Source of the DNA: a virus
Taxonomy: Duplodnaviria > Heunggongvirae > Uroviricota > Caudoviricetes
Strand: one strand, 5' to 3'
DNA length: 54,751 nucleotides
IMG/VR virus record: IMGVR_UViG_2579779067_000001
The position numbers were made by a program, and so were the translations under genes. Below, in pieces: positions 6,513 to 7,395 of the stretch. Every line of letters begins with the position of its first letter. The stretch's first letter is position 1. A model generated the notes under the pieces. It saw nothing but the letters and a program-made list of their open reading frames with translations, had not been told where the DNA came from and did no database searches.

Positions 6513-6551
6513 ATTGCGAAATATGCAAGTAGCATTTTGCGAGATATGCAA
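6513..6551. promoter_or_regulatory. putative left operator sites (TTGC-N7-GCAA motif, two copies)
   Basis: TTGCGAAATATGCAA and TTGCGAGATATGCAA left of cI; same motif class as in the cI-cro intergenic region. Confidence 0.4.
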
Positions 6552-6564
6552 AATTATGGGTGAT

Positions 6565-6585
6565 AAAAAGCCACCTTTCGGTGGC
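6565..6585 (-). terminator. rho-independent terminator downstream of cI
   Basis: GCCACC-TTTC-GGTGGC hairpin with T-run on the minus strand. Confidence 0.5.
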
Positions 6586-6605
6586 CGATGGATGGGATAT
6601 TGAGG

Positions 6606-7298
6606 TTAATTATGTCTCTTAAGGGTTTGCGACTGACTGATTAAGACCTTTCCAAAGACCATGAATCGGTGTTCGTTTTCGCTAGTAATTCCCCATTCAC
6701 GGTAAATCTGGTTATCAGAAATCACCAGCAGTTTGTCAGGAATCATTTGAAGTCTTTTAACGTATATTTTGTCATCAAAACCAAAGACATATATACCATC
6801 ACCATCAAACTGATTGATGCTGACATCGACGAAGATGAGATCTCCTGGCTCAATGGTTGGACACATACTGTCCCCACGAACGTTGATAACTTTGATGTGA
6901 TTGGCTGGTCGTCCGCCGAACATTGATACAGCATTATCAGTTCTGTATTCGATGGCATGAATCACATCAATGACATCACCGCCCTGGATAAGGCCATTTC
7001 CCGCACTGGCACTGATATCCAGCATTTCAATACGGAACACATCCTTCACCTGCGCAACATCCTCATTATTACTGTTTTTATATACAGTATTACTTTTGAG
7101 GGCAGAGGTAAAGAGATCAGCAATATCAACACCTAAGCTCTTGGCAATATTACTCAGTGTTTGTTCGGTAAATTGTTTCTGCTTACCCGTTTCTAAGCGC
7201 GAGATGTTCGCCGCATCTACTCCTATTGCTTCAGCGAGATCGGCGATTTTCATGTTCTTCGCTTGGCGAAGTTGTCTGACTCGGTTTCCTATGTTCAT
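6606..7298 (-). CDS. cI: CI-like repressor (HTH_XRE + S24 LexA-type peptidase domain)
   Basis: 230 aa; N-terminal HTH (IADLAEAIGVDAANISRLETG); C-terminal S24-like domain (GDSMCPTIEPGDLIFVD ... VFGKV); divergent from cro-like gene. Confidence 0.9.
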   Translation of the reverse strand: MNIGNRVRQLRQAKNMKIADLAEAIGVDAANISRLETGKQKQFTEQTLSNIAKSLGVDIADLFTSALKSNTVYKNSNNEDVAQVKDVFRIEMLDISASAGNGLIQGGDVIDVIHAIEYRTDNAVSMFGGRPANHIKVINVRGDSMCPTIEPGDLIFVDVSINQFDGDGIYVFGFDDKIYVKRLQMIPDKLLVISDNQIYREWGITSENEHRFMVFGKVLISQSQTLKRHN

Positions 7299-7315
7299 GC
7301 GTTTATTACATTTCT

Positions 7316-7395
7316 TTATTGCGTAATAAGCAAATCAACTTGCGCAAAATGCTTGCGTGAAATAACATGCATAACGCGCAATATTTGGAGGATAT
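7316..7395. promoter_or_regulatory. cI/cro intergenic operator-promoter region (OR-like)
   Basis: TTGCGTAATAAGCAA, palindromic TTGCGCAA and related half-sites between divergent cI and cro-like genes. Confidence 0.45.

Follow-up and report, generated by a model that had tools for sequence, protein, structure and literature searches.

Probable operators of a lambda-like lysis-lysogeny switch flank the cI repressor gene in an SfII-related phage sequence

The IMG/VR virus record IMGVR_UViG_2579779067_000001 (Caudoviricetes; 54,751 nucleotides, called the window below and meaning the whole stretch analyzed) contains a repressor gene, cI, and a divergently oriented cro-like gene, and copies of a short inverted repeat, TTGC-N7-GCAA, lie on both sides of cI. 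The cI gene (6606–7298, minus strand) encodes 230 residues with an N-terminal HTH_3 domain (Pfam, 1.2e-11) of the Cro/C1 helix-turn-helix (HTH) type and a C-terminal Peptidase_S24 domain (6.1e-19), and it is assigned by PHROG to transcriptional repressors. Both domains agree with the original prediction, made from the letters of the DNA, of a CI-like repressor located between two clusters of operator motifs. Ala99-Gly100, Ser144, and Lys181 are invariant in an alignment of relatives, and the cI product is a CI-type repressor that can probably be cleaved during the SOS response. It is 99.6% identical to CI of SfII, 96% identical to those of mEp460 and Stx2a_WGPS2, and 83% identical to that of ST64B, with lower values for Klebsiella phage Kp4873-4 (71%) and Citrobacter phage phiNP (69%). 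An intrinsic terminator of cI, annotated as a putative rho-independent terminator in the SfII record, lies at 6569–6586 (minus strand) between the cI stop codon and the left-hand repeats.

On the other side of cI, cro (7396–7656, plus strand) is an HTH_3 gene of 86 codons, and the first gene after it encodes a cII-like regulator (YmfL/Phage_CP76; 7649–8206, plus strand; Pfam PF06892, 1.4e-13; PHROG CII-like activator, 1.4e-70). A repressor with HTH and S24 domains that diverges from a cro-like HTH gene is a feature of the lambdoid immunity switch. In the window, however, cro is interrupted by an in-frame TAG at 7444–7446, where all relatives have CAG (Gln17) and none of 84 related loci has this stop codon. 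Barring a sequencing error, this copy of cro probably yields only the first 16 residues, leaving the switch with a lytic arm that is probably defective. A nearby Gly13Cys change in cro (7432–7434) also occurs in four IMG/VR loci.

A scan of the complete window with the core pattern TTGCNNNNNNNGCAA (TTGC-N7-GCAA) placed two exact matches in the left operator region (OL), namely, OL site a at 6514–6528 (TTGCGAAATATGCAA) and OL site b at 6537–6551 (TTGCGAGATATGCAA), 23 bp apart from center to center. In the right operator region (OR), site a, which resembles OR3 of lambda in position, is a third exact match at 7319–7333 (TTGCGTAATAAGCAA), 21 bp upstream of the cI start. Site c (OR1-like; 7367–7381, ATGCATAACGCGCAA, reverse complement TTGCGCGTTATGCAT) has a single core mismatch, and in the weak site b (OR2-like; 7340–7354, TTGCGCAAAATGCTT) the left half is perfect but the right half is poor, with the site center 21 and 27 bp from those of its neighbors. 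The fuller consensus of the sites is a 15-bp palindrome, TTGCG-N5-CGCAA. Of the coordinates first proposed for the motif, 6537–6551 and 7319–7333 were exact, whereas 6513–6527 was one base too low; the related half-sites seen at 7340–7385 resolve into OR sites b and c. OR thus comprises two strong sites with a weak one between them, and OL comprises two sites rather than three, no further match of at least 7 bits being found near the OL pair in the window.

The number of exact matches in the window is in itself unremarkable, since four were found against 2.0 expected and 12 of 100 shuffled sequences reach four. What tells is the clustering: the 382 bp of noncoding DNA around cI, for which base composition predicts about 0.006 matches, hold three of the four. 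The fourth (39459–39473) falls within an open reading frame (ORF) and has a low matrix score; it was rejected as an operator and treated as a chance occurrence. The three exact sites beside cI also form the top direct-repeat family (D1) of an unbiased repeat search, and OR site c was recovered both by that search (I4, I5) and by a scan allowing one mismatch. A weight matrix was then derived from 51 sites in lineages whose CI is at most 83% identical, with no sequence from the window included. The five sites occupied the first five ranks in 54.7 kb with this independent matrix: OL site a (6514) scored 21.2 bits, OR site a (7319) 19.4 bits, OL site b (6537) 19.3 bits, OR site c (7367) 17.2 bits, and OR site b (7340) 10.1 bits, and chance alone should yield about 0.3 hits of 14 bits or more in the whole window. 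A chance origin of the sites is excluded.

Candidate promoters were mapped by eye and then checked by conservation in 20 lineages, and each takes its −35 hexamer from one of the sites. The candidate rightward promoter (PR; 7340–7368, plus strand) has the −35 hexamer TTGCGC (7340–7345), which is the left half of OR site b, a 17-bp spacer, and the −10 hexamer TAACAT (7363–7368), with a predicted start at about 7374–7376; the same hexamers and spacing occur in 20/20 lineages. The final two bases of the PR −10 hexamer also open OR site c, which covers this predicted start; the overlap explains why site c always begins with ATGC rather than TTGC. The candidate promoter for repressor maintenance (PRM; 7305–7333, minus strand) combines TTGCTT (7333–7328), the right half of OR site a, with TGTAAT (7310–7305) across 17 bp, has a predicted start at 7298, and retains TGTAAT at this spacing in 17 of 20 lineages. 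The candidate leftward promoter (PL; 6500–6528, minus strand) combines TTGCAT (6528–6523), the right half of OL site a, with TATCTT (6505–6500), again across 17 bp, with a predicted start at about 6492–6494 from which it would read into the leftward operon; a TATCTT-like hexamer is found at the same distance in most lineages. From the end of the PRM −10 hexamer to the A of the cI ATG (7298) there are 7 nucleotides in the window and in 17 lineages, and 8 in two, among 20 tabulated. This interval is too short to hold a Shine-Dalgarno sequence, and the cI transcript therefore probably has no leader, like that of lambda.

Conservation in homologous immunity regions had been put forward as a check on the operator idea, and its outcome was strongly positive. 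The 1.4-kb immunity region is 97.7% identical to that of Shigella phage SfII and about 90% identical to those of mEp460, phiSTEC1575-Stx2k, Stx2a_1447/WGPS2, and 1720a-02. The TTGCG and GCAA blocks show no variation across seven aligned phages, in which substitutions fall in the site centers, and the sites align column by column with those of SfII, mEp460, and ST64B, so that operator type and positions are the same. The layout is common to SfII, mEp460, Stx2a and Stx2k phages, ST64B, Kp4873-4, and phiNP. It also recurs in a more distant set of 22 prophage loci taken from one-genome-per-species bacterial assemblies, with CI 40 to 100% identical and hosts that are spread over the Enterobacterales and include Citrobacter, Kluyvera, Klebsiella, Pantoea, Mixta, Rosenbergiella, Dryocola, Proteus, Serratia, and Phaseolibacter. 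One Shigella flexneri locus (SFBU0723) encodes a CI identical to that of the window.

The right-hand sites stand at fixed offsets of +21, +42, and +69 from the cI start. Of the 22 genome loci, 21 have OR site a at +21 (between +20 and +22) relative to the annotated start; the exception is Rosenbergiella, where it lies at +64 and the cI start is placed differently. At the position of OR site c, ATGC-N7-GCAA is present in 19/20 lineages, mostly at +68 to +70, and an OL pair with a gap of 7 to 9 bp lies beyond the cI terminator in 16/20. The sites are nonrandom and, together with the promoter-like hexamers, conserved in type and position over many lineages, and the recurrence of one site type at fixed offsets in about 20 enterobacterial lineages, whose CI is 40 to 96% identical, supports the proposed assignment to OL and OR.

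The same contrast between half-sites and surrounding bases was seen at the population level, in 90 loci of which 80 were IMG/VR contigs. Among 59 unique variants of the OL region, the minor-allele fraction was 0.025 in half-sites, 0.147 at inner positions, 0.178 between sites, and 0.055 in the flanks, and variation in the OR region was likewise concentrated in the site centers. Of the 80 IMG/VR contigs, 66 had two left sites and one right site as exact matches, and the other 14 had one exact match on each side. The left operator region as a whole (6446–6590) is far more polymorphic than its surroundings, with those 59 unique variants among the 90 loci and a gap between the two sites that ranges from 7 to 9 bp. 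In one IMG/VR locus (L051, near position 2239 on the plus strand of that locus), a left site has been lost, apparently by recombination between direct repeats.

These patterns bear on the idea that the repeats are kept merely as promoter elements, or look conserved through recent common descent, without any repressor binding to them. Three of the sites do supply a −35-like hexamer, the first bases of the −35 consensus TTGACA are similar to TTGC, and many of the loci are close relatives. However, the dyad partner GCAA, exactly 7 bp away, is kept as well, even at the two sites outside −35 positions (OL site b and OR site c); divergence is saturated at inner and intersite bases but not in the half-sites; and synonymous positions in cro of relatives are held to the motif, as described below. 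We regard this explanation as very improbable.

It is instead very likely that the palindromes are the operators of a lambda-like lysis-lysogeny switch, an interpretation drawn from sequence comparison. CI dimers, and probably Cro as well, would bind the 15-bp TTGCG-N5-CGCAA palindromes. OR site c would cover the end of the PR −10 hexamer and the start point, and the weak site b the PR −35 hexamer, so that occupancy would silence cro together with the cII-like gene and the replication genes. Because OR site a overlaps PRM, covering its −35 hexamer and spacer, it would serve in negative autoregulation by CI, in the shutoff of cI by Cro, or in both. On the left, OL site a would cover the PL −35 hexamer and spacer, with OL site b, 23 bp upstream, probably bound cooperatively, and the pair would block PL. 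Spacings of 21, 27, and 23 bp would suit pairwise cooperativity, and induction would proceed through RecA-stimulated self-cleavage of CI at Ala99-Gly100. We infer the binding protein, the site hierarchy, cooperativity, the start points, and the role of each site.

The identity of the binding protein raises an alternative, namely, that only Cro or some other phage or host regulator binds these sites and that CI recognizes a different sequence. In most lineages, cro and the cII-like gene are conserved together with the sites, and no result here assigns the sites to one protein. The recognition helix of Cro resembles that of CI by eye only (xxSRxE), and BLASTP of the 70 N-terminal residues of CI against Cro gave no alignment. 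On the other hand, the recognition-helix segment of CI, N(I/V)SR(L/V)ETGKQK, is conserved in all lineages that keep the motif; the sites lie on both sides of cI, with the left pair far from cro; the repeat search revealed no second repeated motif common to both cI flanks; and in a Pseudescherichia locus (L096), the usual cro start sequence is missing and yet the OR sites are kept. A host factor fares no better. The segment CGCAAAATGCTTGCG (CGCAA..TTGCG, 7342–7356) looks like a box for PurR, but compared with the PurR box it has the wrong spacing and no central CG, and it is unconserved in ST64B and Kp4873-4. Binding by CI therefore remains our preferred explanation, and we think it quite unlikely that another protein alone accounts for the sites.

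Two further candidates in the region were rejected. TTGCGT at 7353–7358, considered as the start of another site, scored −0.9 bits and is unconserved in distant relatives. The palindromes were also considered as RNA hairpins or terminators, but their arms are 4 to 5 bp with no T-run, and there was no Rfam match in the region; the only hit of a terminator scan among the palindromes was the one inside cro.

Several points nevertheless weigh against the operator interpretation. No published binding, footprint, transcript, or genetic data were found for the SfII/mEp460/ST64B immunity type in a search that covered few subscription-journal papers. A generic sigma-70 scan of 6300–7700 called no promoter, because the −35 hexamers of PR, PRM, and PL each match the consensus at only three of six positions. 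The best OR match lies on PRM rather than on PR, unlike in lambda, so the hierarchy may differ from that of the textbook switch. Some of the regular expressions used to tabulate sites presuppose the motif, although the unbiased alignments and plain one-mismatch scans do not, and the related sequences are nonindependent samples. Finally, OR site b has a poor and weakly conserved right half, which matches GCAA at only about 1.75 of four positions on average across 20 lineages, and its score of about 10 bits is equaled by two or three random positions in each 54.7 kb of shuffled sequence.

This last point suggests another way to read OR, in which sites a and c are the true operators and 7340–7354 is the PR −35 hexamer accompanied by a chance half-site. 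The nearly invariant CTTGCGCAA (7339–7347 in the window, the left part of OR site b), seen across the 20 lineages, does coincide with the PR −35 hexamer. Within it, however, TTGCGCAA is a perfect left half-site at a fixed offset (+42 in 18/20 lineages), 21 and 27 bp from its neighbors as is typical of cooperative pairs, and the right half reaches three of four matches in Kp4873-4, phiNP, Buttiauxella, Mixta, Rosenbergiella, and Dryocola. Moreover, a weak OR2 filled through cooperativity has been documented for lambda and for phage BAA2326 (PMC5977221). We consider a bipartite OR less likely than not. TTGCGCAA is itself an 8-bp palindrome, consisting of two half-sites without a spacer, and its last two bases are conserved even though they occupy inner positions that vary in the other sites.

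In relatives, a fourth palindrome lies farther downstream of PR, at +119/+120 from the cI start and inside codons 8 to 12 of cro (L090, L095, L100, L101, L103, L108, L109, and L113). In phiNP, Kluyvera, Buttiauxella, Mixta, and Pantoea it matches TTGCG-N5-CGCAA perfectly, and in Proteus (L109) the core TTGC-N7-GCAA is exact although the encoded residues change from RKSQ to RIKQ. Codon choice within the site is fixed, with Leu always TTG, Arg CGN, Ser always TCG, and Ala always GCG, and the neighboring codons for Leu5 and Arg6 vary freely. Such synonymous-codon constraint could reflect a fourth operator downstream of PR, serving perhaps as a roadblock or as an anchor for looping. In the window this site is degenerate (7417–7431, GTGCGTAAGGCGCAT; 7.6 to 10.2 bits). 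The lactococcal phage TP901-1 has a distal operator, OD, located downstream of the lytic promoter and inside or beyond a cro-like gene. OD resembles the +119/+120 site of relatives, although the repressor family and oligomeric state are unrelated and, as noted, the site has decayed in the window.

Comparison with established features of the lambda operators shows an overall likeness. As in lambda, cI and cro diverge from a short intergenic region with several dyad sites, spaced at about two helical turns; candidate promoters, PR rightward and PRM leftward, overlap these sites, with a cI mRNA that is probably leaderless; further sites beyond cI overlap a candidate leftward PL; and the repressor is a self-cleaving S24 protein with an Ala-Gly cleavage site. 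The differences lie in the details. Lambda has 17-bp sites of the TATCACCGCCAGTGGTA type and three OL sites, of which OL3 cooperates over a long distance with OR3 in OL-OR octamer looping, whereas the sites here are 15-bp TTGCG-N5-CGCAA palindromes and OL has two in the window and in most relatives. In addition, a stretch of only about 0.8 kb, without rex genes, separates OL from OR, and no N gene is evident; the best OR match is on PRM; and the CI N-terminal domain is of the short Cro/C1 HTH_3 type.

Two Shiga toxin (Stx) phages, whose switches were studied in the Koudelka laboratory, provide closer parallels in arrangement. Phage 933W lacks OL3 and hence has two left operators, as is the case here (PMC5977221). 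In BAA2326, OR2 is intrinsically weak and OR3 is comparatively strong, which leads to strong autorepression of PRM and little repressor (PMC5977221). The strengths predicted here follow the BAA2326 pattern as far as matrix scores go (19 to 21 bits for site a and about 10 bits for site b), and the immunity type itself also occurs in Stx2a and Stx2k phages. The operators of BAA2326 and 933W were nonetheless rejected as being of the same type: they are unrelated in sequence to the sites described here, OR1 of BAA2326 being ATAACTGTGCGTAATG. When the predicted strengths are combined with the other features, an autorepression-dominated switch with a half-operator as its OR2-like site and a functional intragenic fourth operator emerges as a tentative proposal, which we consider rather doubtful as a whole.

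Other well-studied repressors proved less useful as guides. CI of HK022, which we take to be the experimentally studied repressor among the phage matches, is 42% identical over residues 19–228 and has the C-terminal domain in common with CI here. Its HTH differs (..TPKAISKWFNGES..), and the region between its cI and cro genes has repeats of the TGAACCATAAGTTCA type but lacks TTGC-N7-GCAA. Its operators are therefore of another specificity, for which HK022 was set aside as a model. The 434 and P22 c2 repressors belong to the same HTH fold family, and dh434 (1sq8) was a weak PDB sequence match (E = 4e-4), but their DNA-binding domains have low identity to that of CI here. Like the sites here, the operators of 434 are short palindromes in which the outer bases are conserved and the center varies, but they are 14 bp long and of the form ACAA-N6-TTGT. 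No solved structure of a close CI relative was found in the PDB sequence search.

The surroundings of the switch are those of a Shigella/E. coli prophage. Left of the OL pair, leftward phage ORFs (6320, 5741, and 4995 onward) with matches to phage families continue to the integrase. Two ORFs overlap on opposite strands at 5861–6106 (plus; phrog_3311) and 6024–6320 (minus; phrog_3195), and both match phage protein families without known function. A tRNA-Thr(CGT) gene at 1369–1444 adjoins an integrase-sized ORF (1459–2622, minus strand), marking a prophage end at a thrW-type attachment site of the kind typical of Shigella serotype-converting phages. The 417-residue ORF at 1–1254 is presumably proA-like, as at the SfII integration site. 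Far from the cI region, Rfam matches at 48994–49279 to the C4 antisense RNA (76 bits), to its a1/b1 target, and to isrK suggest a P1/P7-type antirepressor-control module, possibly part of a second mobile element or of a prophage remnant.

With respect to earlier work, none of the phage records examined, SfII included, carries an operator annotation, and neither an SfII or ST64B operator nor the motif was found in the searchable literature; a prior description is possible, since subscription journals lay mostly outside the search. While the architecture is that of an ordinary lambdoid CI/Cro switch, the TTGCG-N5-CGCAA specificity of the SfII/mEp460/ST64B group thus appears to be undescribed.

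In sum, this locus adds a specificity rather than a principle to what is otherwise a textbook type of switch. An operator consensus together with a promoter map would allow immunity groups to be predicted from sequence, would help to recognize prophages with defective switches, such as the one with a truncated cro in the window, and would aid in the design of reporter or induction experiments. The region is widespread, occurring in Shigella serotype-converting SfII, in Salmonella ST64B relatives, in some Stx2a and Stx2k phages, and in E. coli, where 2639 of 5426 complete genomes gave a match, which spanned 80% or more of the region in 1040 of them, with no match more than 99.2% identical. If the predicted site hierarchy is true, it bears on the inducibility of the toxin-carrying members of the group, and an autorepression-dominated logic, if it holds, would predict low repressor levels of the kind found in "hair-trigger" Stx phages.

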